Shown here piece by piece: positions 25,601 to 64,000 of a stretch of DNA of 64,000 nucleotides. The notes below the pieces were generated by a model, which had not been told where the DNA came from, searched no databases, and worked only from the letters and a program-made list of their open reading frames with translations. The stretch is from NCBI RefSeq assembly GCF_000002075.1, contig NW_004797457.1, forward strand, positions 733,612 to 797,611. The letters are read 5' to 3'. The translations under genes and the position numbers were made by a program. How positions within the stretch are numbered: the first letter of the stretch is position 1; every line of letters starts with the position of its first letter. The DNA is from Aplysia californica (taxonomy: Eukaryota).

Positions 25601-26582
25601 CTAAAACTTAAGTCACCATTGCCGTTTTTGCGCCCATTGCAGATTTTCCTTTTGTTAACCCTGGTCCTGCTCGCCTGCGTTCTGGTCCGGTGTCAGTCTG
25701 GCCCCTAGCTCAGCGCACGCGCGCCGAGCATCATCTCCCATTTAATTCGGGTCCCGAGTCGGATCCGCATTCACGCAGCTCAAGTGTGTGTGCATCAGTG
25801 TGCTTGAGTTTGTGTGCATTTGTGGCCTTCTTCTAGAACCGCCTGCGTTGGTTCGTGACCGAGGCATACGTCTCATTCAAAACACGCCAAGTTGGTAGCT
25901 GTAGATGTTGGTCCAATGAAATTATATAGAAGAAATTGACCCACTTAGACATGAGGAGCTCGAAAGGGTAGTCAGGAAACAAGTCTTCCATTTTTCTATA
26001 CAAAATCTTTCAAATGAGCTTGATTTTGTATGAAATGATACTACCTGATAAAAACTAAGCTTGTTTGATAATTTTGAATACCATTGTGCAGGTACAAAGA
26101 ACAATTTGAGTGCAAAACATTCGGAAATTGACCTCTGTATTATCCCCTTTGAACCCCAGGTCATTCATAACAAGAGCATCTAGAAAGGTTATTCGAATGG
26201 GCGTAACTACTTTATTGTCTTATCAGCTTATGAGAGGGGGTTATTCATGTGTTTTACTATAAAGTCAGATGGTTATTGTATGTGACTAGTTTGTAGTTCT
26301 ATCACTGACTATGGCAAGATTAAATTAAAAAGCTTAATATGTCTGTTAAGGGAAGTTAACGTCAATATCATAATTAATTATTTAAAGTCAAATCATTGCT
26401 AAGATTGCTGGTTCTCAGCTTGATATGTTGGTTTCGTTGTCAAATATTTAACAGCTGGTCTGAACAGAATGTGATTAACAAATTGCTCCATATATCTGCA
26501 GGGTTCAAGTCATGGACAGTTATTAGTTGATAAATATGGTTTATATATTACATTACATTTTTTTTCATTTTTCTGTTTTTAG

Positions 26583-26884
26583 GATTATCGACAGAATGCC
26601 GAAGCAGCTAAGGCAGCCCTTGATGGGCTACAGAGGAAGGGCAGAATACTCAGAATAAGATTTGCTACCCATGGTGCTGCACTCAAAGTAAAGAATCTCC
26701 ACCCATATGTCTCAAATGAACTTCTTGAACAGTCGTTTTCTCAATTCGGGGATCTGGAGAGATGCATTGTCATTGTGGATGACAGAGGCAAATCCACAGG
26801 AGAAGGCATAGTGGAGTTTGTGAGGAAACCTGGAGCTAATTCAGCCCTCAGAAGAATCAATGAAGGAGTTTTTCTTCTTGGAGT
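26583..26884 (+). CDS. DBHS gene exon 2, copy B (within the duplicated block)
   Basis: Identical to 16308-16609. Confidence 0.85.
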
Positions 26885-27243
26885 GTATGTACTTCTTCAT
26901 ATTTTTTGTACATTGTCTCTTATTATATGTCTTACCATTTTATGCATTCCAATAATTTGTTCCATCAATTTTTTTTGAGGAGTTTTTGTTCGAAGGACCC
27001 TAGAAGTGGCCTTGTACATAAAGATTTTAACATTTAAGTTTTAGATGCAGTGAGATTGGTGACTTTAGTTTTTATTAAGCTCTTTTCAATCTTATTATTG
27101 GATGCTTTTGGGCAAAATTACAGAACTAAGTACAGGGTCTGCGTACCATAGGATCAGTCCTTGTTCTGACATTGTACATGATTAGATAGGAATGTTGATG
27201 TTTTTGATTGCTTCATTCTTGCATAATGATTTCCAATTTCTAG

Positions 27244-27339
27244 AGACCCCAAACCAGTTGCTGTAGAGCCATTGGAACAGAAAGATGAAGAAGATGGCAT
27301 GCCTGAAAAGTTCCTGACCAAGACAGAACAGTACAAAAA
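27244..27339 (+). CDS. DBHS gene exon 3, copy B (within the duplicated block)
   Basis: Identical to 16969-17064. Confidence 0.85.
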
Positions 27340-29169
27340 GTATGAATATTAATATTGTTGTGGTTTAATGATTCAAGGACCAAGTTGATTTTAGGTACAT
27401 GTATCAAATTTCTCTAGGTTTTATATGTTGATCAGAAATGTCTTTAGTTTGCACTTTTTATGAATAATAGTTTGCACTTTTATGAAAAAATTACGAATTT
27501 CCAGAATGGTTTTTGAATGAGAATGAAGCCTGTAAGTCAATTCGAGAGATTTTTTGCTTTAGGTGTAATATCAATAGTTTGAATCTAATGAGTGCCGAAA
27601 AGTGTGCTAAGGGTATGGGGGGGAGGGGTTACTTTGCCAATACCCATCATCCTGACACGTTGGGTGGATAGAGGCTGTTTTTTTTGGGGTTTTTTTGTTG
27701 TTGAAAAGTTGAGGTATTGGTATGCATAACTAAACAGTTAGAAAGTTTTCAATGCTTTTGTGTTTTTAATTTTATATACAGTCGAACCTGCCATGACGGC
27801 CGCTTTCCATTTCGCCCCTTGCGTTTTTTCTATATAATTTCACTGTGTAAAGTGGCCACCATATTTTAACACACAATCCATATCACACCAAACAATAACA
27901 CCTGTCTTAGGTGGCCACCTTAGTGGCTCCATTACGTTTTGTCATGTTAGTCATAAATTATGCATTGGCCCCTGGTGTTCTGTCCGAGCTGTCATATCCA
28001 ATCACCTGTCGTTATTAGGTAGTCCCTCCAACTGATCATGTTGCGTTGACCCCTCCCACTGTTGACCAATAGGTAACAAAATTTGTAGCTGCTGGTGAGG
28101 TAAGCGTGTGATCCCTCATAACCTATAAGCCACGCCCAAAACTCGTACACAAATCGTAAGTGAGATGAGTGGTCACTGTTTACCCCAGTCTGTAACAAAG
28201 TAACAATGGACGTCAACATGAACTTGCAACAGGAGCGTCGCTCGTTCTCCTAGTGGTGGCGACCCATGTGTTCGTTTTAACATGGCACTCGTCTTACTCA
28301 TCTGACAGATATTTAGTTTTTTTGTCACCCTTGTGCAAAATCAGCAATAAAATAAATATAACAAACGAAATACAAACCAAAAACAACAATGCGGCTACTT
28401 TTGGTGGGGACCTCAGAAGGGAATGGTTTGTTTTGTTCATCTTTATCAGTCCTGCCTAAGACAGCAACCTGTCTTATACGGCCACTTTTCTCCTTGACAA
28501 TTGGGGGCCATCTTACACAGGTTCGACTGTACTTTTAAGATTTTTTGGTCATTGTCTAGATTTACATCCTTACTCGGCCCAACATTCTTATTATCACTAA
28601 CACTTGTCGTTGCATGGCAAAAGTTCTGAATCTCAGCTAAAAATTGTTATTATTGCTTCATTGTTCTCTTATGGAATAAACCTTTTTCCCCTTCAGTATT
28701 TTGTAAAGAGGAGGACATCCGTAATGAGCGACCACTATGAGACAGAGTAGAACAGAGGAGTAGGTTTAGGGTAGGGTTAGGTCTCTTCTTTATTGTGTGT
28801 GTTGGGGTGGTCGCTTTTTACGGAAGTCCTTGTAAATAGTTATCCCTGTATTTGTTCGAAAGTATACTTTACTCACCCCCCGGGGCAGTGCCACTGACTG
28901 TAGTGTCTTTAGGCCATTCCCAAAAGGGGGTAATTTCTGGTTCAAGCACAGTAGAATTGTAAATGGGCTGATTCATCATGTGATGCTCATAGCTGCCTAA
29001 TCAACAACATGGAACTGCTGCTTTTTCTTTCCTAATCCATACTATTGTCATTTTCCTCTACTTCTTTTGTATGTTTGTCACACTCTTGTGACCCGCTATT
29101 TCCGGGATGCCTTGATAATCGAAGCAGACCTTGTGCTGTTGAAGCTAGAGAGGTGAGCAGAGTGAGTCT

Positions 29170-29660
29170 GGGGGCTCTCGTGGCCTAGAGATTAAGGTGT
29201 TGGCCTCTCATTCAAAGGTCCCGGGTTCGAATCCGGGTAGCGACCGAAAAATTTCCTTCTCTAAAATTGTCTCCTTTCACCTCCTTTCCTGCTCTCTAGC
29301 AATATTCTGTCGTCTGCTTTTGTCTCCTCTTTCTGCCCCCACCCCCTCATCTCCTTTGCCCCCTCCTCTGGGCTTCTGCACTCTTTCTGCAGCCTTTCTG
29401 CTGCTCCTCCTTGACTCCTTAAAGCTGTCTTTCTGCCACACCCCTAATCTTCTGGTAGGAAAGATCTACACCTAGCCTTCTCGGACAAGGGCGAAAAATC
29501 TCGGAGGGCCCGTGTGCAAGTTGCGCACGTCAAAGATCCCTTGGTAGTCTAAAATCGATAAGAGTGGGCTTCGGCCGCCACCCGAGCAAAATTCAAAATT
29601 TCCTACCAACTAAAAGTATTAGGTGTGTCCCGCGCGCTCATATGACCGTATGCAGTTGAT
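29170..29660 (+). mobile_element. tRNA-derived SINE with a Deu/Nin-like central domain and stem-loop tail (gap-truncated copy at 18895-19233)
   Basis: A box TGGCCTAGAG(G/A)TTAAGG, B box GGTTCGAATCC; core CCTTCTCGGAC...GGGCCCGTGTGC...AAAGATCCC...TAAGAGTGGG...CAAAATTC resembles the Deu/Nin domain from memory; tail GCGCTCATATGACCGTATGCAGTTG. Confidence 0.75.
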
Positions 29661-29778: not shown

Positions 29779-29975
29779 GGAAAGAGAAAAGGAGCCAAGA
29801 TTTGCACCCCCTGGTACTTTTGAATATGAATTTGGCATGCGATGGAAGCAGCTAGAGGAGCTTGAGAAGCAACGCATTGAGCAAATTAAGAAAGACACAG
29901 AAGACGCTAGACTCAAGCTGGAGGATGAGATGCAGAATGCTCTGTATGAGTACCAGGCAGAACAAATTAGACAAG
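29779..29975 (+). CDS. DBHS gene exon 4 (NOPS end, coiled coil)
   Basis: aaacag|GGAAAGA: EREKEPRFAPPGTFEYEFGMRWKQLEELEK...EQIRQ; donor G|GTTTGT; phase 2 to 1. Confidence 0.95.
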
Positions 29976-30213
29976 GTTTGTAGAAAAGTTTTAGATAGTT
30001 TTAGCGCTATTTCTATTGTCAAGGATGCTGATTGAATGCTTTGGTTTATTTGTTGGAAGAAAATGTGTATGATAGCTTACACAATTTTGAATTTTTATTA
30101 TTATTTAAAATGGATCAAAATACTTAATGAATTAATTAAAAATATTTTTAGAGCTTTTTTGGTGCCTGGTGAACCTGCCTCTTTCAGTAATTGCTATCCT
30201 CTCTAAATTACAG

Positions 30214-30301
30214 ATTTAATCAGGCAGCAAGAGGAACTTCGTAGACTTGAGGAGCTGAGGAATGCTGACAGGCTGAGAAGACAAGAACAGCTGGAGATCA
30301 G
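30214..30301 (+). CDS. DBHS gene exon 5 (coiled coil)
   Basis: ttacag|ATTTAATC: DLIRQQEELRRLEELRNADRLRRQEQLEI; donor AG|GTAATT; phase 1 to 2. Confidence 0.95.
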
Positions 30302-30468
30302 GTAATTATTCTTGTACTAATAAAAAATGAATTTTGCTTTTGTTGTGGAAGTTTGCACATTGTTCCTTGAAAGACAAGAGTGTTACTGTTATTTCAAGTG
30401 TATCGCTAATAGATTTGGTTATTGGAAGTTTTGCAAATCATTCCTTGTGGAAGAGTAGTTAATGTGGG

Positions 30469-30646
30469 TGGTTGGCGGGTGCTCTGGTGTGGTTTGCTTC
30501 TTCTTTCCTATCAAACATCTATCGTCCTTATCTTCCCTTCTTTTTTTACATGTTTGTTACTCTCTTGTAACACCTCTAATCTTCTGGCACTTGCATGACC
30601 TTATGCAGTTGCGAGCGCCGTAAAACCTCTGCTATTAAAAAAAAAA
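30469..30646 (+). mobile_element. Short retroposon family C with the shared stem-loop tail and A-rich end
   Basis: GGTTGGCGGGTGCTCTGGTGTGG...ATGACCTTATGCAGTTGCGAGCGCCGTAAAACC; homologues at ~42470-42540, 53790-53950 and 60398-60565. Confidence 0.7.
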
Positions 30647-31044
30647 AGAGTAGGTCATCAGTAGGATTGTAGAGTTTGACTGACAGGACTTCATGTCTTG
30701 CTCCAGGGGAGTGCTCATGTTAATGTTGTAGTTTTCCCTTTACCCAGACCTGAAGGGTCTAGGTAAGAACGCGTAGTAGATTGATTATAGAATTCAATTT
30801 ACCTTTGAGTCAGTCGTTTGTGGTTTTAGACTTGAGCACTTGCTCTTGGCTGTGTTGAAAATATGATTTGTGCGCTGCACTTTTGTGGTATGCTTTGCTC
30901 TATGCTCAATTTAAATTTATAATGATATTTTTTTATTTAGCTTAATTTTTACTTTTGTTAAAAAGTTATTTCATCTTGGCAGCAGACTAAAGCTTGCAAA
31001 TTTTTCATAGTTAAAGATGCTCACATTTTTCACTCTCCCTATAG

Positions 31045-31186
31045 ACGCCAGCAAGATGACCGCGAAAGAGCTCAAGCTGAAGAAAGGCGCAGAGCTGACA
31101 TGATGATGAATATGAGACAACAAGAGATTGCGAGCCGTAGAGGTCCTATTGACCCTCCTTCGATGAGGCAGAGAGAGGAAATGATG
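31045..31186 (+). CDS. DBHS gene exon 6
   Basis: cctatag|ACGCCAG: RQQDDRERAQAEERRRADMMMNMRQQEIASRRGPIDPPSMRQREEMM; donor |GTAATA; phase 2 to 0. Confidence 0.9.
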
Positions 31187-31617
31187 GTAATAATTTTTTG
31201 TCTATATTCAATTATATAAATGACTAAAACACAATCACAACCTAGGCTTTACTTTTTCAAAACTTGCCCTCTAGAAAGAGGACATGTCATTTGATACTGT
31301 TATTGGCATGAAGACTGTCTGTATTATTTTATTGTTTAGTTTTAATAGATTTACTCGGATCTTATGATCTTACTTTTACAGTTGTATATGCTTTCAAAAC
31401 TTTTGTGGAAAGTGGTCAGATGTAATCAAAGTTGGGGGTTAGTTTGACATGAAAATTTTAATTTGGTTTTTAATTGAAAGAAGGCTTTATTGTGAAGGCT
31501 TAAGCGCAGGGTTATGTATTGTTACTGCAGTTGTGAATGAATGGATGATGCTCTGCTATTGTATATCATTGAGTGGGACATTCTATAATGCCTGGGTCTT
31601 CTCTCCGTGTTTTTCAG

Positions 31618-31839
31618 ATGGCTGACCGCTACGGTGACCGCATGGGAGAGCGTATGCCTGAACGCATGGGAGAGCGTATGCCCGAACGTATGGGAGAGCG
31701 TATGCCTGAACGCATGGGAGATCGCATGCAAGAGCGTATGGGAGAACGCATGGGTGATCGCATGCCAGAGAGACACCCAGACCGAATGGGTGGACAGCCT
31801 TCTGGCTTCATGTGGCAGGATGAGAAGGGCCGTGGAGAG
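31618..31839 (+). CDS. DBHS gene exon 7, (D/E)RM(G/P) tetrapeptide repeat
   Basis: ttttcag|ATGGCTGAC ... GAG|GTGAGA; phase 0 to 0; synonymous variation between the 12-nt units. Confidence 0.88.
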
Positions 31840-33245
31840 GTGAGATTTTTAAACAAATTATTGGTTTAAAAGCATATTGACAACTGTTTTGGCACATTCC
31901 ATGTGGGATTCTGTTGCTTCAAATTTGAAAGTGCTGAGTTGAGGGAAGTCTTTACAATGGCGTTGATTTTTTACCCTTTTACTTGAAATTTGTATTATGT
32001 TTTAAAGCTTCCCTCAATATGTCTTCCTTTCAGTAAAAGTAATGGGAGTCAGTGGTGTTATATCCTTTGAAATATCTCAGAACTTAAGGCAACTGAACTA
32101 TTTCAATTGCTAGAGCAGTATTTCTCCACTATCAAAAAGTGTCATAAAGCAAAAAATGTATGAAAATTGGCATGTAGTATTAAGAGCAGTGAAATGTGAA
32201 ATTGTTTAAAGGGAAGGAAGGAAATTCTGATTTTGCTTTGAAACATTTCTAAGTAGCTACTAGTCGTGGATTTTTCTTAGTTACGGTACTTGTAACAGGA
32301 CCAGTAGTAGTGTAGTACAGAAAATCAAGATGGGTCTGTTGGTATTCATTGAAGCAGCCAGGCTGTTTTGGAATATAAACACGTATGTACAATAATTTGT
32401 AATCATATGCAATATTTTTGCCAACAGAGCTCTCTAATATACTTAATAACTGAAACTTGAGGATTCTTGGTTTTCCTCCTGGTACCTCATTCATTTGCAG
32501 CTGCTTTGCAAACCACTCATTTAAAAGACAGTATTACTAAATTTTTGGGTGGAGCAGCTTCTCAACTAGCGTCGAGAGTGTTTTACAGGAATGCAACCTG
32601 GGCATTTTGAAGTGATAATTTTTTAATTGATGAAGCAGATTTTTCTGTTTCTTATTTTTTAGTCAGAAATGTATGTTAATGTTCATCCGCGTACCAAAAA
32701 TCTGGAAAAGATGAGTTGAAGAGCGAAAGAGAATGCAGAAGATAACACTGACATGGAATGTGCCGTTTACTTTTACTTTGTGGTTCTTGTATGGATACTT
32801 TTACAATTTTGTTGACTTTGTGGTGGGACCGATTGACCACTCAGAATAAGAAATGTTAGTTGCGGAAGAGGGTGCTCAAAGATCACCTCAATAAACAGTG
32901 TGCTTATATGGAATTTTATGTTGTATCAACATAATCAGGAAGGGGGAGTAATAATCTATGAACTCTCTCAATAATTTATGAATGCTGACTAAATTTCATA
33001 AACCTTGTTTTGACTGGTTGTCGAATTATATTTCCTCCCATGATTATTATTTGAGTGGTCCATTCCCCCCTTGATTAGAAAAGAACTCTTTGTATAAACC
33101 TTGTCCTGTGTGCATGAAATTTTTTCTGTTGTTCTTAATCATAAATCAAAGGAAAATAGTTGATTCAATTTGAGGCCGTCTATCATGTAGTTCAGCTTAA
33201 AGTGGTCAGCCTCACACGTTTGTGTTTCCCATTGCTGCCCCCCAG

Positions 33246-33428
33246 GGTGGAATGAGAGGTGAGCCCCAGCGCGGTCGAGACATGCGAGGCTCAGGGGCGC
33301 CACCCCTCCAGCCCCCACCTGTTCCTCCGTCAGGGATGGGTGCAATGGAGCGTGGTGGGCCAGCAGCTGTATCAGCTGCAGCTGCTGCTGCCGCTGCTGC
33401 TGCAGCTGTTGTTGCTCAGAATGCTAAG
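33246..33428 (+). CDS. DBHS gene exon 8 (Gly/Pro-rich, 11-Ala tract)
   Basis: cccag|GGTGGAATG ... AAG|GTAATT; phase 0 to 0. Confidence 0.88.
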
Positions 33429-35832: not shown

Positions 35833-35934
35833 TCAAGTCCAAAACCTCTGATGCAGTCAGGCTCTGGCTTTGGCGGGCCAGGCAGTGGAGCAGGAGGACC
35901 AAATAATCCCAATGCTGGACCAGATGGCCCCATG
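35833..35934 (+). CDS. DBHS gene exon 9 (SSPKPLMQSGSGFGGPGSGAGGPNNPNAGPDGPM)
   Basis: Long polypyrimidine tract then ttttcag|TCAAGT ... ATG|GTGAGC; 102 nt, phase 0 to 0; absent from the ORF track. Confidence 0.8.
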
Positions 35935-44774: not shown

Positions 44775-45098
44775 AGGAGGTCTCGTTTTGAGCAAGGGGG
44801 TGGTGAGGGTTCGTACCAAAACCAGCGTGGAGTTCTTGGGAGTGGACCTGGGCCAATGGGGCCAGGTGGTATGGGTGGTCCTCAGGGTGGTCCAATGGGG
44901 CCAGGTGGAAATGCTGCTGCAGCTGCCATGGCTGCCAATCAGATGAGAGGTGGACCTGGTGGCATGGGTGGACCTGGTGGACCTGGTGGAAATTTTCCGG
45001 CGCAGGGAGGGGGCATGAATGAGCGCATACTTTTGGAGCGCAGAAGAGAGGCAGCACGCGAAGAGCTCAATGATATCAAGAGAATGCGCAGATGCTAA
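44775..45098 (+). CDS. DBHS gene exon 10, terminal (Gly/Pro/Met-rich; ends ...NDIKRMRRC*)
   Basis: tttttgtaccacag|AGGAGG, phase 0; basic C-terminus resembles the terminal NLS of NONO/SFPQ/Hrp65; total spliced CDS 2079 nt = 692 aa. Confidence 0.9.
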   Translation, partial: RRSRFEQGGGEGSYQNQRGVLGSGPGPMGPGGMGGPQGGPMGPGGNAAAAAMAANQMRGGPGGMGGPGGPGGNFPAQGGGMNERILLERRREAAREELNDIKRMRRC

Positions 45099-48255: not shown

Positions 48256-50557
48256 AGTACTGAAAATATTCTTGTCAGTATAAAAACGAAATACCTTTTG
48301 AATTAAAAAATGTGGCTGCCTGAAGGCAAAGGGCCCCAGGAAGTAAGGAAAAAGTCGCTCGATAAAATCAGTTGCTCTGCAGGTTGAAGAACTAGCAGTC
48401 GACTACCCCTGAGCAGAACACAAAGTTGAAGAAACAGTATCTTTGTTGAACTTGTGTTGACCATAAACAACAATAATATAAACCTGAACATAATCCGGTG
48501 AGGGGGGTGATACATTTGAGTGAATGAGTCAAGTCATTGTTACAGGTCTGTGAATATATGGGCTTATAACCCTTTTCCTCAACATGTGTACATGAGCCAC
48601 CACAGGCATGCTTATTATGCTTGCGGAGCTCCCATACCGTATAACACTTTATAACACACAGCTTAAGGGACTGCTTTATCGCATATGGCTTTGTGTGAGC
48701 AAACTCCCGTGGACTATTCATATATACTGGAAAAAGTTTATATGACGTACACAGCTTAAAACCTACTGTGGTTAGATTGTTCACTTTCTGAAGCTCCAAG
48801 TCCGATTTTGTATTTTAACTCTTTATGGCTAATATACCTTGGAACTGAATGGAGTACATTATACCGAGGTTTTACAGTAGTCTGAAGCAGACTTTGATGT
48901 GCGTTGTGAAGTTGAATAATGCTTATCATAGACTCTTACTCTTGTCAATTGAGTACCGGTACTATGTATAAAGGCAAGGTTTTCGCTACATGTCTATGTC
49001 AGTAATTGCCGTTGTCATATGACTAAAACTAGTGAAATAACCAACACAACTTTATTTTGTCAGATACGTCACTCTGCCTTGGGATGGCAGATTTCATGAC
49101 TTGTTTTTATACAACAGCATTGTGCAATCTTTTTGGACGATCAAGGTAATGAGTGGCCCATATTTACTTCGCTTTTAATCTGAGTTCGCAAATTTGTATA
49201 GAAATGTTGAAAACCCCAAATGGCTGCGTTGTACTTACGCTGTACTTACGCGTCTTTGACCTCGCGTGTGTGTGTGGGTACATGGGTGGGCTGAAGTATG
49301 GTTTGTGGGAGTTGAAATGGGAATGTTTAAGATTTTTGTTAAAGGGAAGTGGTACATTGGTCTTGGAAGGCCAAATTGTAAAGAAGGTCGTACCATATTG
49401 GACTTCAAAGTGGGTGATCGGGGAGAAGTTTTGTTGGTTTTTATTTTTTTATGGGTGAGGGAAGGGGAGGTGTATTCCTATACAGCATTTGTACAATTCA
49501 AGCCTTGAGAGTGAGAGATGATGACGGATGGCATCACCATACTTCCCGTCAAAAGAAGGAATTTGGTGTTGTGAGTATGCTATGGATCACCATGGTAGGT
49601 ATTTTTTTTCAGGTGATGTATGTGTGCGCAGGGTACTCCCGTGTTTTCAACCCCGTTCCCACTATATGACCCAAATGCTTTTGTACAAGTGATCATTCTT
49701 GTTCTTTGTGCAGAGGTTTTTGGTGGCATACTTTGCGTCAATGACTGTTTTTGATAGCATTCTTAAAGACTCTTAGGCCTTAGACTTTCAAACTATTGGG
49801 GTGCGGTGGAAGAACAGTTCTTTTTTGTAGTACGGTATACTAGAATGGGTTTTGATTTTGTTTGTTGTTTTTTAAACTAGTGGTGTCGACTTACCTATTG
49901 TTCTGATTNNNNNNNNNNNNNNNNNNNNNNNNNNNNNNNNNNNNNNNNNNNNNNNNNNNNNNNNNNNNNNNNNNNNNNNNNNNNNNNNNNNNNNNNNNNN
50001 NNNNNNNNAATAATAATAATAAAGACACCGACAATGAATTATGACTTTAGGTTGTACCAAAGAAGAGAACAAAACCCTCAGAAACCCCCACCATGAATCT
50101 AGATACAAGAACAGTGAGACAGAAGACAACACATTACAACGATTAAAAACTTGTGGAATTCAAAGACGTGACACAATTTTCTCTTTCTTCTACTTGTTTT
50201 TGTCGTTATTTATTAAGGTCTTTCTACGTCATTTCTGGCCGGAATAATTTTTTCAGTTGATAAAGGCGGGCTCGGGGGGTGGGGGGTGGGGGGCATTAAA
50301 AATCCTGAACTTGTCGGGCCCCACAGAAACACACAAGTGGGGACTCAAAGCTTGCGGATTTTACAAAAAAAATCGTTTCACTCTTTAAACGAAAGTAGCT
50401 GCATCACGTATTTATGTCTTGGTTTTTTTCTCTCTCAGTATTTGGAATTTGAAAATCCACAAAACATTTCTTGACCACGTGCAACCGATACCAATCATAG
50501 ATTGAGAAAGAGAAATTTTAAAAAATGAACGAGAAAAAACTTGGGCTTAATGCACGA

Positions 50558-51092: not shown

Positions 51093-51477
51093 GCTACATT
51101 TGGCAGCTACAAAAACACGAGCCATGGGATTCTTCAAGAATTCCTCAATACATTGTGGGTTTTTTCTCCAGTGTTCACAGAACGTGAGGGCTGTTGTTAT
51201 ATCACAAGGAGGATGACTGACACAGAAATGACTACATGTACTTCCCTCTTAGTTTCTGTGGGGAGGATTGGGGGGGGGATAGGAATTGTTTGATGTCTTT
51301 AATTTTGTGGGTGGGTTTTGCATCTAATTTGGTTTCAAGCTGGATCTGGTTTCAAGGCATGGTGGCTGGTTTTTAGATCACAGGTTTTGTCACTGTCAGT
51401 TATCCCTTCCCATTTCATACCTCTGCTCTACGCTGATAACAGGCCGATCAGATGACGTTAAAATCTAGACTAGAGGC

Positions 51478-55500: not shown

Positions 55501-57660
55501 TTCTCTGAAACTTTTCTTGTGGTTGTTGCTTGTTTAAGTCTGCTTTCTTCTTCTTAACGTGTGTGAAACTTCACATATTTGCCCTGCCGGATACCTTTCA
55601 CAGCATTATGTGTGGTTACAATAGGAATTGCATCAGCATTATTTGATATACTCACGCGTGCATATTCTGTCATGGAGATGATCCGCTGCTACCTGTATGG
55701 GTGCTTTTGAGACAGTGGTAGAGGAGAAAGGGATGACCAATGAGGGAGTAATTACTAACTGAAGAAACTTGTATTCTATAATGAAAATTATGAACAGGAT
55801 AATTAAATACATGGATAATTAAAATAAAACAAACAGAGGCAGCTCAGGGTACCTCACACCACCTTTCCTCCCTTGGGCTTGATGAGTAAGTGGGAGGTTG
55901 ATTGTGGTATTTTTGTTGTAATGACAGTCTATTAAGATGCCAATGCAGTTTGTGGAAGTTAGTGCCTGTAGGATACTATGTTTGTTGTTACTGTACAATA
56001 TAGCTGTTTACAAGGACAGTAGTCTGTGTATTTTAAAGGTAAAGTACATGCTACACACTTAAAAGCATTCATGCGGAAATGGCCACTGTAGGTAACAACC
56101 TTAAGAGAGTTGTGCATTTTCAGAAGTGCTCACTGCTTGATGGTGAATGTATGTGTGTGTGTGCGCAAGCGCGCAGGTGCACATGTGTGTGTGTTTGGCA
56201 TTTATGTGTATATATATATGTGTCTCGGTGAACTCTTGGACAGAGTATTTGGCAAAAGAACCAGTGACCACTGTTTCGTTTTTGTGATATGAAATCAGTC
56301 AGGCAAATGTGTCTCGTTTCTCAGCCTCTGTGTGTGGTATATGACAAGAGAATCTTTGAAGAATTTTCCTCAGACATCTCTTGATCATCGCCGAAACCCT
56401 TTGCAATCCCTTATGGAGTGATACCACGGATTTTTAATTTATTGCACTCAAAGGATATTTGGTTTGATGCACGCCTTTCACTGAGATTTACTTTCTGTGT
56501 CTGAGAAGAAATACAATTTTAAACCAAAATATCAAAGGCTGAAAATACTCTGTTCTGTTGAATTGTCTTTGTCTGCTTGCCTTTCTTGCTCTATCTACCT
56601 GCCTGCCTGCCTTTCGCACCTTTGTCAGTCTCCCAGTCTGTCTCTGGCTCTCTTGTACCTCTCTCTGTATCTCTTTTGCTGGCTCTCTCTCTCTCTCATC
56701 TCTCCTGTGCTCGTGTTTTTTTAATTGAAAGAAAAGAAAATCCTATTGGGGATTAGGCTGTCTCTCTGTCTCTCTCTCTTTCTTTCCCACACACTCACAC
56801 ACACACACCACATCTTTTTCTTTTTGTCTATCTGCTTGGTCTCTTTCTTTTTCTGTTTGTCTCTCTTTTCNNNNNNNNNNNNNNNNNNNNNNNNNNNNNN
56901 NNNNNNNNNNNNNNNNNNNNNNNNNNNNNNNNNNNNNNNNNNNNNNNNNNNNNNNNNNNNNNNNNNNNNNNNNNNNNNNNNNNNNNNNNNNNNNNNNNNN
57001 NNNNNNNNNNNNNNNNNNNNNNNNNNNNNNNNNNNNNNNNNNNNATCCTGTAGGGGAATTCACATATTACTGCGGCACTTGGAAATTGTTTGGCTCAACA
57101 AGGCTTTCAGTTTGAGCATATGGTTAGGTATTTGTTTCACTGGATTATTTTGATTATCCTGCGTGTTCTTGAAAAAAAACAACCTGTGAGAATTTTCACA
57201 CTTCTTGTGTGTTGGACAGGTGCATTGATATTTACCGCGAATGTCCCTGTGAAACTTGACAGATGCAGATTATCCTGATTGCGGCTAAGATTGTGTAGTT
57301 CATGTTTTGACTGTTCTTACAATATTTGATGTAGGTGAACATATAAATATTTGCTTTTGATGAGTGCTGCTGCATTATTTGTTTGTGGAGATTCATTTGA
57401 CGACTAAGAAGTTGATACCTTTTTGTTTAGCTTATAGATCTTTAAAAAAAAGGCCTTTTCTTGTATTACCTTGTAATACATGTATATTTTAAAGTTTCCA
57501 GTAAAAGAACAGTGATGCGTTTGGGTATTCTATGTTCACTGTGTTGATGATCACGTGAAGATTAGAACTTGTTATACTCCACACTATTATGTATTTTCTA
57601 TTCTTTGTGTTGCTTTTATTTGTATAATTGTTGACCGCTTATTAATATTCTTCCACACAG

Positions 57661-59515
57661 GAAGAAGATGATGCAAATGAAGGCAAAGAATTGTCCTCCT
57701 GTGATAATTCTCCAAGCCCCAGGATGTCTTTTGCTGTCTCGAAGGAAACACTTGGAGAATCAACAGCTTCTATTGCCTCCTCGAATTCACGAAGTCCTGC
57801 TGGAGACAGATGTGGATTGGACACAGATACTACTACTGACCCTGGTTCTGGAAGCCCTGGAAGGGAAAAAGCAGAAGATCAACAGGATGGTCAGGGTCTT
57901 TGGGCCACTGACTCTGACTATAGAACAGGCTTGACCCAGAGCCCCACGCGGGAACACTCGACCGTCATCTCCCCAAGTGTTGGTCAGGGGAGCAGAGATT
58001 CGCCAGGAAGATGTGGGCCTGTGCTGGATCTTGGTGACCAGGACCAAGACTACCGCTCTCCATTGTATAAAGCCACGTCTTATAGGAAAGCTTCTATGTC
58101 TAGTGCCTCTAGGTCACGTTCAGAAGAGAGAACCTATGTTGGTGAAATACTGAGTAGTGAGCTCAGCGATTCTGTGTTTATCCGAGCTAGTTCTGTTGAA
58201 CTTGGTGCAGCACGCACAAGTAATGCTGCTGATTTTGAAGAAAAACCAGAGAAAAGTACTCGTAAAAAAGCTAACAGTCTTTCACATGAAGAAGAGCATT
58301 TACCAAAATGCTCAGCTGAGGAACTTAATGAAGTATTTGAACAGGGTAGTGGTGAACAATATAAATCATCAGGAGATCAACAAGACTCAATAGTTGCCAG
58401 TGTTAGTGAATCTTATGAAACTTCAGCTCAAGATAGTAAAAGTACTCAAAGCCCGAGTACATTACACCCTAAAGGGACTATTCAAAGATATTTCTCCTCT
58501 GAAAATTTAAATTGTGCAGCTCATGTGGACTCTTATGAGTCAGTTAATGACTATGAGAACCCCTCTTTGGCAGACTCTGAACATTCAAGTTCTACTTTGA
58601 CGTTGAATAATGTGTCATTTGAATCAGTGCAGAACTTGGGAAAAAGTTGTAGTAATACAGATGGAAAGGAAAACGATGAACATGCTATGTGTGTAGACAG
58701 TGCTGATTCACTTCAGGTTTCTGACTCTTCTGTTTGTCAGACGGATTGTGAAGGAGCTAGTTATAACCAAGGAATAGACAATTATAAGTCTTCATCTACA
58801 GTCTTAGTAGAAAAAGATAATACTGTTGATAGCCTCAGTGAGCATTATAAACAGTTTCCTGTAGAAATTGACTATGACAATACTGTCGGTGATCTCAGTG
58901 AAGATTCTTCCTCTCAGTATGGATATAAACAAGCAGTTGAGAATGAGCAGCATAGCAATATCAGGGAAAAACGTCTGTCTTCATATAAGCAACATTCAAA
59001 TGATGATTTAGAAGAAATGGAAGAAGAAGATTCCACTCCTGTAGCTCTGGCAGATGTCTACCAGAGCTACGAGGAAGAAATTGTCGCGCCTCATTTACAA
59101 AATATAAATATTGCAGCTGCATTGTCTTCACAGAACATTGCTCAATCTCAGGAAAACAGTGCTTGCTGGGCTGAGGATGATAATGGAACACCTCACTCAT
59201 CAGCAGATCAAACGTCCTGCTCAGCAACCTACACCTCAACACAAAACACAGTTACAGAAGCGTTGTCCACATCAGCTCACGGTGAAAGCATTACAAACTC
59301 ATCTTCTGCAACTGCCCCTCTTTCTCTTGCTGCAATTGACCCCCACACAGCTGAAGAGGACCAGAACGATGGTGCTCTGAGGACAGGAGACCAGTCCTTC
59401 AAATCTGCTGCGGCCAGACAATCTGCTCTTGTGCCATTCTTACAGTCCTCAAGATCTGCTGGCTTCTCTGCCAGCGTGAACCCGTCCTCGTACGCTGGTG
59501 CTTCTGTTATTCGAG
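57661..59515 (+). CDS. Large internal exon (1855 nt, ~618 aa) of acidic Ser-rich disordered protein; unknown product, possibly an alternative 3' part of the DBHS gene
   Basis: ttccacacag|GAAGAAGAT (phase 0); 1.85-kb open frame in AT-rich DNA; donor G|GTAAGT (phase 1). Confidence 0.85.
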
Positions 59516-60766
59516 GTAAGTAACTGGCTGGTGGGTATCCTGAGAAAACTTTTGTAAACGACAACTGGGCTTGTTATTTGAAAACTGAGAGGGGTAAGGT
59601 TTTAAATTCTTTGCAAGATTCGGCTTTTGTTTTAATGTCCTGGATATTGGGATTTTTTTCCATCAGCAACTTTTGACTGATGCTTGTTGAGCAAAAATAT
59701 TAAGAGAGTGCACACGCTTTGAAATGTTATTGTTTTCTGGTATGGCTAATTGTTATAGAACTTAAACAAAAACTTTAAAAAGGGTGTCAAACATCCGAAA
59801 CATGAGAAAAAAACTTCCAAATCTCTCTGCAGCACTATAAAGCGCATGAGTCCAGGAAATCTTTTGAACACTTTCTGGTTACCCTGAACTTGTAGGGCAT
59901 ATATCTTGTAATATGAACTCTTTTAGAAAGGAGGAGGGGAAAATGACATACAGTCTAAAGGAGACATGGTCTTATCATTTTTTTATCTTGTGAAAAGTGT
60001 TAAAAAGGGTTACCCATTAGAAAGAGGGTGTTTGTATTGTACTGTCTTTACTAAAAAGCGATTAACCATTCTATTTGTGTTGGCCTGCATAATTCCTAAT
60101 TTCACTTACAAAAGTTTCCTTCTGAGATCCCCTCTTTGTCAAGGTTTAATTAGAAAACTTTTACGCGAGAGTATGCAGTTACTTGTCGTGCCTTTTTGAA
60201 TTGATCGCAAAAGAATAGCACACTCATGAGATCACCTTGCAGATGGTATTCATGCTTTTAAAAAAATCCTATTCTTGATTGTTTTTCACTCCCATTTCTT
60301 CCAATTTTACGACATTCTGATGGTTAGGGACCTCTTCTTGTAGTACTTCTTTCCTGCTGGGCTGTTATCTTGCTTTTTCTTTATTTATTGGCTGTTGTTG
60401 GTTAGCGGGTGCTCTGGTGTGGTTTGCCTTTTTTTTCCTATCAAACATCCATTGTCCTTATCTCTCCTCCTTTTTTGTGTTTGTTACTCTCTTGTAACAC
60501 CTTTAATCTTCATCACTTATATGACCTTATTGTGTTGCCAGTGCTGTAAAACACTAAAACTAAAAATTTATTGGCTGTTGTCATGTCAGTGTGCTTCTCT
60601 TTACTCCAGGACAACTGGTGCCTATTGTGTTTTTGGCTTATCGTACCCAGACAGTACTTGTTTGGAATTGATTTTCCCATAAAGTTACCTTTTCTTATAA
60701 AACACTTTCTTCTGTTCTTGATCTGACAACAAAAATACTAGAGCTAATTGTTGTCTGGTATTCCAG

Positions 60767-61160
60767 GTATGTCTCAGCCGGCCATGATGTCCAGCTCCTC
60801 GATGCACTTTGCCCAGCACCCTGGAGGTGGAGCGACCATCCTGCGACAACAGAGCCTCAGTGCAGCAGCAGGGCTGAATGGAGCTGGTGTAGCCGCTCAG
60901 GCCACAGTGGTGCAGCAACACGCTTTGGCCAACGGTCTCCAGGCCACTTCGCTCCTCCAGCAGCGGACGTTGACCAATGGCAGCCAGACCATGGTAGTTC
61001 AGCAGCGCACTTTGACAACCGGACTCGGTGGTATGTCGCAGCAGACGGTAGTCCAACAACGCGTTGCTCCGCTGGCACCATCTGCAGCTCTGCACGCGTC
61101 AGCCCTTCGTCAGCACGCCCTTGCCTCGCAGGCTGGTTTAATGCACCAGAGGGGAGTCAG
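60767..61160 (+). CDS. Next exon: Gln/Ala-rich repetitive low-complexity region
   Basis: attccag|GTATG, phase 1 matches the previous donor; ends GTCAG|GTATGT, phase 2. Confidence 0.85.
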
Positions 61161-61850
61161 GTATGTTGTCATGTTAGCAAAGAAAAGTGCACAGCATAAA
61201 AGAGGAAGAGTATTGTCTCTCAGTTCTCTCTGTCAAATGTAAGGAGACTGATGATGTACTTTTTGGGGGGACCTCCATTCGCTGTCAGAAAAGCTACTAA
61301 AATTTATGAGTTCACTCAGCTATTTTATTGGGGGTCATAATTTTTTTTTTTTTAAAAGGGAAATAATGTTGATTCTGTGTGGATGCACCATGATCTTTAT
61401 TCTTTTTCCTGGATATATAGTTTTAGTGGTGATTGGCTGAAGCACAGTATAAGCATCCTACTCCTTTGTATTTCTGTTGCAACCCCTTTATCATTGGCTC
61501 ACAAGATAGGCAAGTGTACTGCATGAAAATATTGTCCGTTGGATAGTCTTTTCAAGGTGTAGAGCTTTCAGAAAATATATTGTTATAAGACATTTGTGAT
61601 TGATTTCGTAGTAGTTTCGGGTATTTTATGACTCATGGATATCTTGTTGGTTTTTTAAATCATAAATGAAAGTAAAAACAGACATAATTCTTGAGATTTT
61701 GAACTTGAGAGATTGTTGGAGAACAGTGAAAGAAAATACGACTTTCCATGACACAGATTCTTGAGGGAGGAAGGAGAGCTGAAGTTCTTTTTTGACTGTT
61801 TCTTAGAAAGAAACATGAATATGAAACATTTTGTCCTCTCTTTCTCACAG

Positions 61851-62087
61851 ACTGGCCCAGGCAAGAGTACTGGGTGCTCCAATGCTACAAGCTCAGCGCC
61901 TGGGGCGGCCTGCCTTCATAGCACGAGGTGGTGCTGCTGCTGGTGGCAGTACCACTTTGTTGGGCCCGGGTCTTGTGCGTGGTGGAAGTCAGGCCTCCAT
62001 GATGCAGCAGCTAGTCCGACAGAGATATCTGGGAGGTCCTGTCATGCCGGGAAGGGGTGTCCAGATAGTAGCAGGAAGACCTGTCAG
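61851..62087 (+). CDS. Next exon: Arg/Gly/Ala-rich (LAQARVLGAPMLQAQRLGRPAFIARGG...GRPV)
   Basis: tttctcacag|ACTG, phase 2 matches; ends GTCAG|GTAAAG, phase 2. Confidence 0.8.
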
Positions 62088-63089
62088 GTAAAGGCAAAGG
62101 TTGTCTCTATTTTGCTCCTTTTTAATCCAAACCTGATACCAATACTTAACTTGAAACATTGGGTAAAAGAAACTGGGAGTAACCCCCCTCCCCATCATTC
62201 GTAACTGACTTGATGAACTTGATGTTGTCCACAGAGGCCTGAGATTGCAGTGGGGTTGGTGCTTTTGCTTTGTTTTACAGGGACAGGAAAAACTAGCTGG
62301 CTGTGTTAGTATGTGTGTGTGTGGGGGATGTTGTTTGTTTGGTGTGTGTGTGTTTTATGCTGTTCCTTTACCATTGTATTGGGCAGAAGAGAACTAAAAA
62401 TGATAGACCCTAAATGAGAACATGAAAAGGAACAGACATTGTGGGTAGTTTCTTACTTTTTTAAAATCAGCGTTATGTTAGAATTAGACATCACAAGACC
62501 TAGTCTGTACTAAATAAGTCCTTTTTATTTTTACACATTGTTAGAGTTGACAGTGCTAGGTCATGTGTAATACAGAAGGCAGGTGTACCAGAACAGATGG
62601 TAACATCAGCTCTTTTTGACTCAGTTCACAGGATATTTAGACATCTGAATTGTTAAACTTGTCAGTGCCTCCCATACATTGACAGGATATGTTTTGTTTG
62701 TTTGTTGTTGTTTTTTAAGATGAAAGAATTTTTGTTGTATATTGGTGGTCTATTTTTGACACTCTGTATCACTTGAGATGTCTAGTGTTTGAGTTTATGC
62801 TCATGCAAGAACATTTGCCTTTGCTCTGAAAATAGTGTTACTGTTGAAAGAAAAAAAAAAGTAACGAGTCATTTCAGTGTTTTTCTCACCCTGTAAAGCA
62901 TGGTCCAATGAAGGTGTTCATTTTATCTGCCATGGTGATTATATGGTTATTTTCATTTTATAGAACTTTTTTAAGGAACATCTTTTTCGACTTCCAATCA
63001 AGTTGTGATGGTGTTGTTCTAAGTCAGAAAGTTGGTTCAATATTTGTTTTACTTTGCTATTGACTGCTTGTATGTTTTGTCTTGCTCAG

Positions 63090-63141
63090 AGTGAAGATGA
63101 CGTATCCAAGAGAGAACATGCCCATGGAATCGAACACTTGA
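63090..63141 (+). CDS. Candidate terminal coding exon (R-VKMTYPRENMPMESNT*)
   Basis: ttttgtcttgctcag|AGTG in phase 2; AATAAA at 63648 and ~63932 downstream; a competing acceptor at 62280 would give R-DRKN*. Confidence 0.4.
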
Positions 63142-64000
63142 TGCAGCTCAGCAGCTGGTTAAACCACGGCAAACATTAATAAGTGCAATTCTTTCCCATG
63201 AACTTTGTGATATTTCGTGATTCATACATTTGTACCATGCTATTGATGTGCAAGTGTCAGCTCTTAACAATCCTCCATATGAATCTTTAAACGTGTATAT
63301 TTTATTAAGTCAGGAAAAATCATGTTGACATATTTTATATTATTTTTTTGTCCTTGATTTCCAGACGATTGTTTACATGAAATAATTTCAGTATTGTTTT
63401 CTTGGATCAAATCAAAGCACCATATACATTGAGTAAATTTCATATATTTTTAAAATCCGAAATGCTCATTGAATAGTGATTATTTATTCATTTATTGTTT
63501 TGGGGGTTTTTTTGTCACTGATTTTCTGTCAAGTGATATTCTAGATATTATATTATATTGACTTAAGCCGAGTGCTGATATATTATTTTTAATCAGCTAG
63601 TGGTTTCTCAGTAAATTACTTTTTTGTTGGAAAATGGCATTCTTTGGAATAAAAAGCAGCGAGTTTTGCTTTTTTTTCTTCAATTGGGTTTGAGATATTC
63701 TGATGTCCCTTAATGACCTTATAAAACAATTGAAAGTGAAATGTTCCTACTTATGGTGCAACACCCAGTGGTGTGTTTGTACGTGGTTTGTGTAATTTTC
63801 TAGTTTTATTATCAACTGGCTCGAAAATAATCGTATAGTTAATCTCTCAGAATCTGTTTTCTGAATTAAGTTTATTGTGGTCATGAACGAAGAGTATTCC
63901 TTGCAATGACACAGTGTAGTGGGTTGTTTTAAATAAAACATGCCTGAAAAATGTCTCAATGGTCACCAGTACTTCTTTTATAGGTCTTCCGTCTATGAAT

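Follow-up and report, generated by a model that had tools for sequence, protein, structure and literature searches.

A distal exon chain as the probable long alternative ending of the single DBHS gene of Aplysia

Our analysis of a 64,000-nucleotide stretch of Aplysia californica DNA (the window; contig NW_004797457.1, all features on the + strand) indicates that the exon chain at 57661-63141 is probably a distal alternative ending of the only DBHS gene found in the genome (one locus in G000), and that the resulting long form would be an NLS-less dimer partner, likely a cytoplasmic holder docked through its end motif. The exons of the chain have an open frame and are spliced, either ending continues the frame of the shared exons, and conservation extends to the tail and its acidic-then-basic charge order. 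In the mechanism that we propose, exon 9 would be joined to this chain, leaving out exon 10 with its NLS, to give a 1,430-aa form that would retain RRM1-RRM2-NOPS and act as a dimer partner devoid of import signal. This form would likely hold some of the DBHS protein in the cytoplasm, where the conserved end motif might dock it on a putative partner.

Results

The shared part of the gene starts with the coding part of exon 1 (5281..5703), comprising an N-terminal low-complexity region and the first half of RRM1 (Pfam RRM_1, E 6.6e-11; alignment with Biomphalaria residues 1-163). Exon 2 (26583..26884), which contains the end of RRM1 and RRM2, has a second copy at 16308-16609, probably an assembly duplication, and exon 3 (27244..27339), with NOPS, has one 10,275 bases upstream. 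Exons 4 to 8 (29779..33428; individually 29779-29975, 30214-30301, 31045-31186, 31618-31839 and 33246-33428) encode the end of NOPS, the coiled-coil region and a low-complexity region, and exon 9 (35833..35934), the last one common to both forms, ends with an ATG codon in phase 0 and carries the switch donor. The tandem RRM1-RRM2 was recognized from RRM_1 in exon 1 and in P0001 (135-195), with two stretches in the fused orthologs; the NOPS domain (PF08075, E 1.1e-23) and the coiled-coil region are present, and the core shares 186-211 of 230 identical residues with orthologs. The coding part of the proximal last exon 10 (44775..45098), 60% identical to Biomphalaria Pspk 567-674, ends in the basic KRMRRC, which resembles the canonical DBHS ends of other molluscs and is a classical NLS by motif only. 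Translation of exons 1-10 gives a short form of 692 aa with this C-terminus, whose expression in Aplysia is suggested by its orthologs. A zf-FCS gene lies upstream of the DBHS gene.

The distal chain begins with exon 11 (57661..59515, phase 0>1), a fast-evolving stretch of 618 codons, acidic, Ser/Thr-rich and likely disordered, with conserved islands near its end. It continues with exon 12 (60767..61160, phase 1>2), whose Gln/Thr/Val-rich hairpin repeats are predicted to form a six-strand antiparallel sheet, and exon 13 (61851..62087, phase 2>2), which encodes the greater part of the conserved end motif as well as a basic block rich in Arg, Gly and Gln. The three exons with matching phases of the initial annotation stand, and we add a fourth within the same stretch, exon 14 (coding part 63090..63141, phase 2 to stop), which completes the end motif and is present, followed by a 3' UTR, in the orthologous spliced transcript L009; AATAAA signals lie downstream of it at 63648 and 63932. 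All four exons are bounded by AG/GT, and the tail, open as proposed, measures 845 codons plus stop rather than about 830 aa. No stop interrupts the 618-codon frame of exon 11, against 16-76 stops in each of the five remaining frames; from base composition, such an open frame would arise by chance with a probability of about 4e-17. As previously noted, each of exons 6-9 ends in phase 0, and the protein of about 1,420-1,430 aa expected upon skipping of exon 10 translates into 1,430 aa (exons 1-9 plus the distal chain) without internal stops. It also shows the anticipated acidic Ser-rich (exon 11, Ser/Thr-rich) and R/G-rich (exon 13) segments and the loss of the KRMRRC end. No K[KR]x[KR] motif occurs in the Aplysia tail, nor in those of Littorina and Babylonia; the Biomphalaria and Bradybaena tails have one KKxR/K motif each. 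One weak candidate for a short Gly-stop distal exon was found in Aplysia, at 51253.

The junction between exon 9 and 57661 is, in our judgement, very probably real, as orthologs, RefSeq and contig geometry jointly imply. Contigs of runs X9 and X4, from two studies (runs of RNA type, their kinds being guessed; only contigs were taken as evidence), join 57660-59513, 60765-61157 and 61848-62087 across GT..AG introns. Each extends exactly 30 letters into an upstream exon (29 of them loose, before 57660) and then ends, an overhang below the 31 letters from which bridging was counted. Under a 31-letter assembly graph, this overhang fits two of the five donors tested, those of exons 9 and 6, by geometry and not by letters. 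Both contigs have low depths (10.7 and 13.6), the raw-read runs X22 and X23, at less than 2-fold depth, were too sparse for joints and gave no junction rows, and three runs of one study contain almost no words of the big exon 11. The join itself already exists in automated annotation: RefSeq XP_035825717.1 (‘uncharacterized protein LOC101860495’) connects 35934 to 57661 and, from residue 101 on, is exactly the long form. Its first 100 residues derive from 13902-15420, within the duplicated segment, in place of the true exon 1, so that it lacks most of RRM1; the current RefSeq protein thus has a wrong N-terminus originating from an assembly duplication.

Transcription might also start within the intron before 57661, from an internal promoter yielding a tail-only protein beside the fused form. 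We consider this improbable: the 252-nt contig at 57321-57571 (run X4, depth 3.75) that would suit such a promoter can be pre-mRNA or DNA, the contigs carrying the exons are spliced at 57661, the frame does not reach its first ATG until 26 codons in, and tail-only starts are not conserved. In agreement with the initial annotation, no convincing ATG-bearing first exon was found in the readable sequence before 57661. Our scan of 45.2-57.6 kb for ATG-to-donor exons in phase 0 ending in G, in which two N stretches are unreadable, returned a sole candidate (49317-49454) that clashes with the contig overhang.

The fused architecture is not restricted to Aplysia. The earlier proposal of a DBHS link was to fall if homologues of the tail were never fused to DBHS domains; DBHS core and tail end motif occur together in 11 stored proteins from five gastropod species. 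The fused models, all automated predictions, measure 1310-1359 aa in Biomphalaria, 1356/1363 in Bradybaena, 1103/1111 in Littorina and 1019-1023 in Babylonia, and share the junction site with Aplysia. Among the donors initially considered, 35934 (exon 9) is the one used in every species compared, to the exclusion of those of exons 6-8 (33428/31839/31186), and the same Met marks the point where short and long forms diverge in Biomphalaria, Littorina and Pomacea. The 40-residue end motif (residues 1344-1383) has 33-36 identical positions out of 39-40 in five heterobranch rows, compared with 16-18 out of 37-39 in two caenogastropod rows; by sequence comparison, it appears about as conserved in heterobranchs as the RNA-binding core. 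The ortholog tree (one of 38 rows dropped for missing the anchor motif; the Aplysia row being the RefSeq protein with the wrong N-terminus) gives a label-change count that is unusable, since species for which no long model is available may still have the form. DBHS tails of such length had been thought unprecedented, yet Ciona (830 aa), Phallusia (801 aa) and Lutzomyia (969/1025 aa) also have long models, with tails unrelated to the snail one; no description of a long snail DBHS isoform was found in the literature searched.

These conservation patterns bear on whether the distal route could be mainly a self-regulating diversion from the nuclear form, the tail protein being incidental. The autoregulatory use of human altSFPQ (PMC12372870), the between-species identity of only 15-27% in exon 11 and the low contig depth would fit such a diversion. 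By contrast, the heterobranch end motif is conserved like the core, the frame is open over about 460-845 codons in five species, dN is lower than dS in all three hely haplotype pairs, and two of the three contig substitutions in the tail are synonymous, its sole deletion being in frame. We therefore find a mere diversion quite improbable and retain a protein-coding distal ending as the preferred reading.

The tail consists of an acidic, likely disordered block followed by a basic block almost free of acidic residues, an order seen in five out of five tails versus 0 of 500 shuffles of each. In Aplysia, the C-terminal 270 aa have a net charge of +20, are nearly acid-free and might serve as an NLS of non-classical type. 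This feature would suit a long form that, with the same splice link, is nuclear, entering on the short form or via its basic end, and whose tail serves as a chromatin/RNA-processing adaptor, as in Hrp65-2. Hrp65 isoforms without NLS are reported to be imported through dimerisation (Kiesler 2003), and HRP65-2 to associate, on transcribed genes, with actin and with a histone acetyltransferase (PMC2063754). Against a nuclear long form, the classical NLS motif is missing in three of five tails and altSFPQ, produced by the same skip, is cytoplasm-predominant (PMC12372870). A nuclear location thus seems possible, if rather unlikely, and we favor a cytoplasmic one.

ESM Atlas gave no usable match for residues 1130-1389 or exon 12, and Foldseek none at E 0.001 with two models; a capping-protein likeness among the Foldseek rows (TM 0.13-0.34) was rejected. 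The best VIA-align match of the exon 12 model (Z 9.3, rmsd 4.0, 88 aligned, 7% identity) was followed by porin-type sheets. This model resembles many unrelated beta-sheets (Z 6-9, 2-13% identity), and we judged the matches a common arrangement. Residues 1-105 of exon 12, taken as two copies, scored 0.00 and gave no answer, and the tail outside exon 12 yielded no confident structure model. We also rejected the end motif as a relative of RRM1 strand 4 (E 0.4-0.9) and as a PY-type NLS or PP1 RVxF motif, neither being conserved across species.

The Biomphalaria tail has been published under another identity. In Biomphalaria glabrata, ‘hely’ (hemolysin) and ‘pspk’ were described as two genes of the Guadeloupe Resistance Complex, with ORFs of 2385 and 2028 bp and a hemolysin label resting on a BLAST E of 3e-16 (PMC4361660). 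These sizes match stored proteins of 794 and 675 aa. The tail could accordingly belong to a separate gene, with its first exon in an unread N stretch of Aplysia and the fused models being annotation errors. The publication of hely with its own ORF (PMC4361660 Table 2), tail-only models in Biomphalaria, Plakobranchus, Littorina and Candidula, and the two unreadable N stretches speak for it. Yet the 794-aa hely begins M-AEED, and this M is the last codon of the common pspk exon; the other Biomphalaria tail-only models have four different N-termini or none, so no conserved start of an independent hely ORF emerged. Five tail-only queries in Pfam and five in NCBIfam matched no family at all, hemolysin or pore-forming ones included (E 0.05), no PDB sequence matched the tail at E 1, and the tails show no membrane helix (best 19-aa hydropathy 0.9-1.2). 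In addition, the contig geometry demands an upstream exon common to a sibling exon. A separate gene is thus very improbable, and hely is likely the tail of a paraspeckle protein, not a hemolysin. Among challenged snails, susceptible ones show an approximately twofold higher hely level (PMC4361660; uncorrected p<0.05), which would therefore be an isoform ratio.

Discussion

By analogy with altSFPQ and Hrp65, the long form might dimerise with the short form and shift it towards the cytoplasm, a proposal for which we see even chances. No exon is known beyond the one that holds the stop, and with this layout the long mRNA should escape the NMD that removes altSFPQ. More speculatively, a decay-coupled, self-regulating splice route may have become a stable protein-coding route in snails. 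In a broader scenario, which we regard as doubtful, the NLS-removing switch at exon 9 would be ancestral to bilaterian DBHS genes. Its decay-coupled branch would have become, in the ancestor of caenogastropods and heterobranchs, a stable cytoplasmic DBHS protein of 110-155 kDa, combining an acidic spacer that mimics RNA, a self-associating module rich in Gln and an invariant motif for docking. If true, snails, Aplysia neurons included, would hard-wire a cytoplasmic state that human SFPQ attains solely in neurons or in ALS, and the exon-9 splice switch would have shifted where hely expression differs in Biomphalaria challenged with schistosomes.

The distal ending corrects a gene, hely, in a much-used parasite-resistance locus of a schistosome host snail, and offers DBHS biologists a form that would occur naturally, escape NMD and lack an NLS, and that bears a new conserved motif. 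Aplysia, with its giant identifiable neurons, suits tests of the role of a cytoplasmic SFPQ-like protein. The locus may also exemplify how a regulatory splice route that was a dead end gains coding residues, several hundred of them here.

The closest counterpart is the human exon 9 to 11 isoform altSFPQ, which skips the NLS-bearing exon 10, is predominantly cytoplasmic, draws wtSFPQ and NONO from the nucleus, and adds seven residues before a premature stop ahead of two introns that makes it an NMD target (PMC12372870). In both systems, the exon 9 donor is spliced either to exon 10 with its NLS or to a chain of several exons further downstream, as orthologs, RefSeq and contig geometry indicate for Aplysia. 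The canonical last exon starts M|RN[DE]RF in vertebrates and M|R[QR]SRF in molluscs, with alternative ends beginning after that Met, and the switch junctions look homologous. Unlike altSFPQ, the snail route adds 462-845 residues, stays open as far as the last known exon and terminates with a conserved motif; no early stop followed by further introns was found in the 845-codon Aplysia frame.

The alternative ends of Hrp65 are short. As described in the accessible portions of PMC4872119 and PMC2063754, Chironomus Hrp65-1/-2/-3 likewise derive from one invertebrate DBHS gene with alternative C-termini, NLS-less forms being placed by dimerisation and one isoform having a specific partner (actin for Hrp65-2). 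Unlike in the snail tail, those portions describe no acidic block or hairpin repeat, a comparison by description and not by sequence. Finally, the Guadeloupe Resistance Complex of Biomphalaria is the orthologous locus, with the same order of zinc-finger gene (zf-FCS in Aplysia, upstream), pspk and hely; while hely and pspk were published there as two genes, the evidence gathered here points to two endings of one.

Two probable alternative ends of one DBHS gene

Our analyses show that the distal exon chain of Aplysia californica is real and that its splice link to the DBHS gene is well supported. The window contains one DBHS gene (exon 2, used as a genome search query, hit two places, both inside the window), and the LOC101860495 protein matches the window's exons exactly. 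Downstream of the proximal last exon 10 (44775-45098) lie four coding exons on the + strand, at 57661-59515 (exon 11, the big exon), 60767-61160 (exon 12), 61851-62087 (exon 13) and 63090-63141 (coding part of exon 14), all with canonical splice sites and fitting phases; the initial annotation was right about the phases but had named three exons only. The big exon has no stops over 618 codons, against 16-76 in the remaining five frames. Exons 1-9 and exon 10 encode a conceptual protein of 692 aa, and exons 1-9 and the distal chain one of 1,430 aa, which agrees with the in-frame product of about 1,420-1,430 aa that had been predicted on skipping exon 10.

Window positions 9059-19233 and 19334-29508 are two copies of one 10,175-base segment, differing by 6 mismatches and separated by a 100-N stretch; this duplication doubles DBHS exons 2-3. 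It is likely an assembly overlap and likely explains why RefSeq XP_035825717.1 (P0001) is wrong in its first 100 residues. Its intron carries a 230-codon frame (13085-13774 and 23360-24049, - strand) with a Cys-rich PHD-like end and no Pfam match, likely transposon-derived. Exon 8 (33246-33428) resembles a cassette, being missing in the Biomphalaria X3 and Bradybaena long models. In the Biomphalaria protein P0034, a second last exon follows the RPVR of the end motif (the last 40 tail residues); in Aplysia, 63982-63983 may be an acceptor, and the sequence from 63984 onward shows no clear likeness to that exon. A short interspersed repeat in an intron (60393-60578; related copies at 30463 and 53792) reaches very high depth in all four sequencing runs aligned. 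Downstream of the gene, at ~73.7-87 kb in window numbering (- strand; DNA pieces L003-L004), lie gene exons with motifs that we take to be carboxylesterase-like, and a mariner-like transposase frame.

RNA support and splice donor

The big exon's words occur at 98% in 18 of 24 runs (6 studies), none of these 18 recorded as RNA, and are next to absent in three; the remaining three are raw reads outside the word index. Four runs were aligned to 57045-62600. Contigs from runs X9 and X4 carry the first three distal exons spliced over GT..AG introns and therefore derive from processed RNA; X22 and X23 showed no splice joints, at under 2-fold depth. Both contigs align from 57660, each with exactly 29 further letters on the 5' side, and extend 191 and 332 letters beyond 62087. 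An assembly graph built on 31-letter words starts a contig 30 letters ahead of a fork. Two of the five donors tested predict a start at 57660 with 29 loose letters: exon 9 (ending at 35934, with exon 10 as sibling) and exon 6 (31186). Exons 7 (31839) and 8 (33428), a candidate at 49317 and plain intron retention do not. Of the exon 9, 8, 7 and 6 donors initially proposed for 57661, the first and last thus stand, by contig geometry, not by junction letters as read. In L009, a metagenome contig of another animal, exons 12-14 are joined by splicing and lead into a 3' UTR.

Long forms in other snails

A protein search with exon 12 returned four proteins. Two carry RRM and NOPS, namely the 1389-aa Aplysia RefSeq model and a 1356-aa Bradybaena model; the other two, from Candidula and Plakobranchus, are tail-only models. 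DBHS cores were found in 30 proteins of 745-2373 aa, and among these the tail in five gastropod clusters, whose members include further fused models from Biomphalaria (RefSeq X1-X3, 1310-1359 aa), Littorina (1103 and 1111 aa) and Babylonia (1019-1023 aa). The fusion of tail homologues to DBHS domains is borne out by 11 stored proteins, from 5 species, that hold core and end motif together. Short and long forms diverge directly after the Met ending exon 9. In 10 other mollusc clusters with 75 members in all (Pomacea, Patella, Haliotis, Octopus, Pecten, Mytilus, a second Bradybaena paralog, Mya, Dreissena and Ostrea), no protein exceeds 726 aa; in Pomacea, an acidic alternative end of 144 aa begins like the Littorina and Babylonia tails.

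Searched against the full protein library, the Candidula tail matched 15 proteins at E 0.001, 14 of them clear tail relatives and one unrelated-looking. In the tree, all five long rows fall inside one 100/98 clade, together with the other rows of the groups that we take to be caenogastropods and heterobranchs. A heterobranch-only end profile found the Littorina end (E 5e-5, 204 proteins searched) but not that of Babylonia; tail homology between the two groups is therefore supported but thin. Land snails possess two DBHS paralogs, with two distinct tail types in the library (P0067, P0068, P0070, P0003, P0191, P0194, P0197), and the tail may have been retained in both paralogs. The Candidula core and tail, P0070 and P0002, are on contigs of equal length (95,017).

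The fused proteins are already present in automated annotation, labelled 'uncharacterized'. Our literature search, with subscription journals outside its coverage, found no published account of a long DBHS isoform in molluscs; 'hely' together with 'pspk' led to one 2015 paper only, and 'DBHS' did not appear among the mollusc-term matches listed.

Tail architecture and other long DBHS ends

The acidic Ser-rich segment initially annotated is indeed present: residues 545-1119 of P0001 have a net charge of -62, and Ser/Thr make up 25% of them. In the last 270 residues the net charge is +20, with 1% acidic residues. This acidic-then-basic order occurs in five of five species, in each of them more strongly than in any of 500 shuffles. 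Identity between species is only 15-27% in the acidic part; among heterobranchs it is 58-66% in exon 12 and 85-90% in the last 40 residues. Caenogastropods have Ala/Gln runs in place of the exon 12-type Gln/Thr/Val repeats. AlphaFold2 (15 sequences) predicted six antiparallel strands for exon 12 (block pLDDT 73-82 outside one loop, pTM 0.48), which recur in a second model; this predicted sheet is only a lead, because structure prediction may overcall sheets in Gln/Thr/Val repeats. The tail has no sequence match in Pfam, NCBIfam or PDB.

Another long DBHS C-terminus occurs in two tunicate models, P0027 (Ciona, 830 aa, with an HExxH motif) and P0028 (Phallusia, 801 aa), where a PF07998 end, presumably peptidase M54, stands in place of the NLS. 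The sand-fly (Lutzomyia) models P0031 and P0064 have 969 and 1025 aa; in P0031, 460 residues with PF00945, which we take to be rhabdovirus nucleoprotein, replace the NLS end; these may be of endogenous viral origin, captured through the distal splice route.

Age of the switch and possible function

In chiton, limpet, abalone, scallop, oyster and two clams there are models that stop 5-53 residues past the same junction, with a Gly-stop ending in six of these seven taxa. Judged from protein models, the ends in chiton, scallop, oyster and Mya resemble distal exons; those of limpet and abalone, starting with Val, may be intron read-through. Frog and fish SFPQ models share the M|RxxRF junction and have alternative ends of 7-8 residues (pairs from different species). 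In human altSFPQ, as part of PMC12372870 describes it, exon 9 is spliced to exon 11, skipping the NLS and adding 7 residues; this isoform is an NMD target serving autoregulation and is mostly cytoplasmic, dragging wtSFPQ and NONO along.

The best reading of the snail long form is a DBHS isoform without NLS that escapes NMD. By analogy, it would dimerise via its intact core and move part of the DBHS pool to the cytoplasm, while the conserved end motif would bind a partner and the acidic block would serve as a spacer or would restrain the basic end. The main rival is a nuclear role as an adaptor, of the kind that parts of PMC4872119 and PMC2063754 describe for Hrp65-2.

Comparison with the Biomphalaria resistance complex

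Among the Biomphalaria cluster members are 'Pspk', of 675 aa, and the so-called hemolysin, 'Hely', of 794 aa. The sections of Tennessen et al. 2015 used here (PMC4361660) place pspk and hely in the Guadeloupe Resistance Complex (GRC) as two coding genes, with ORFs of 2028 and 2385 bp ~21 kb apart, in sequences assembled with ABySS and with genes named by BLAST. Hely starts with M-AEED, Pspk reads ...SNM-RRSRF and the Biomphalaria RefSeq long form ...SNM-AEED. The Hely contig thus likely began, like the Aplysia contigs, within the exon that Pspk and the long form share. In the same sections, hely is ~twofold higher in challenged SS than in RR families, significant only uncorrected, and is not among the main candidates (PMC4361660).

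The Aplysia neighbour upstream of the DBHS gene is a zf-FCS zinc-finger gene of MYM type, the two genes lying head to head. The zinc-finger gene comprises L008:7114-8274 (- strand) and a 1,086-codon ORF ~6.5-9.7 kb upstream of the window. It matches znf2, which adjoins pspk in the Biomphalaria GRC, and this edge of the complex therefore keeps its order in Aplysia.
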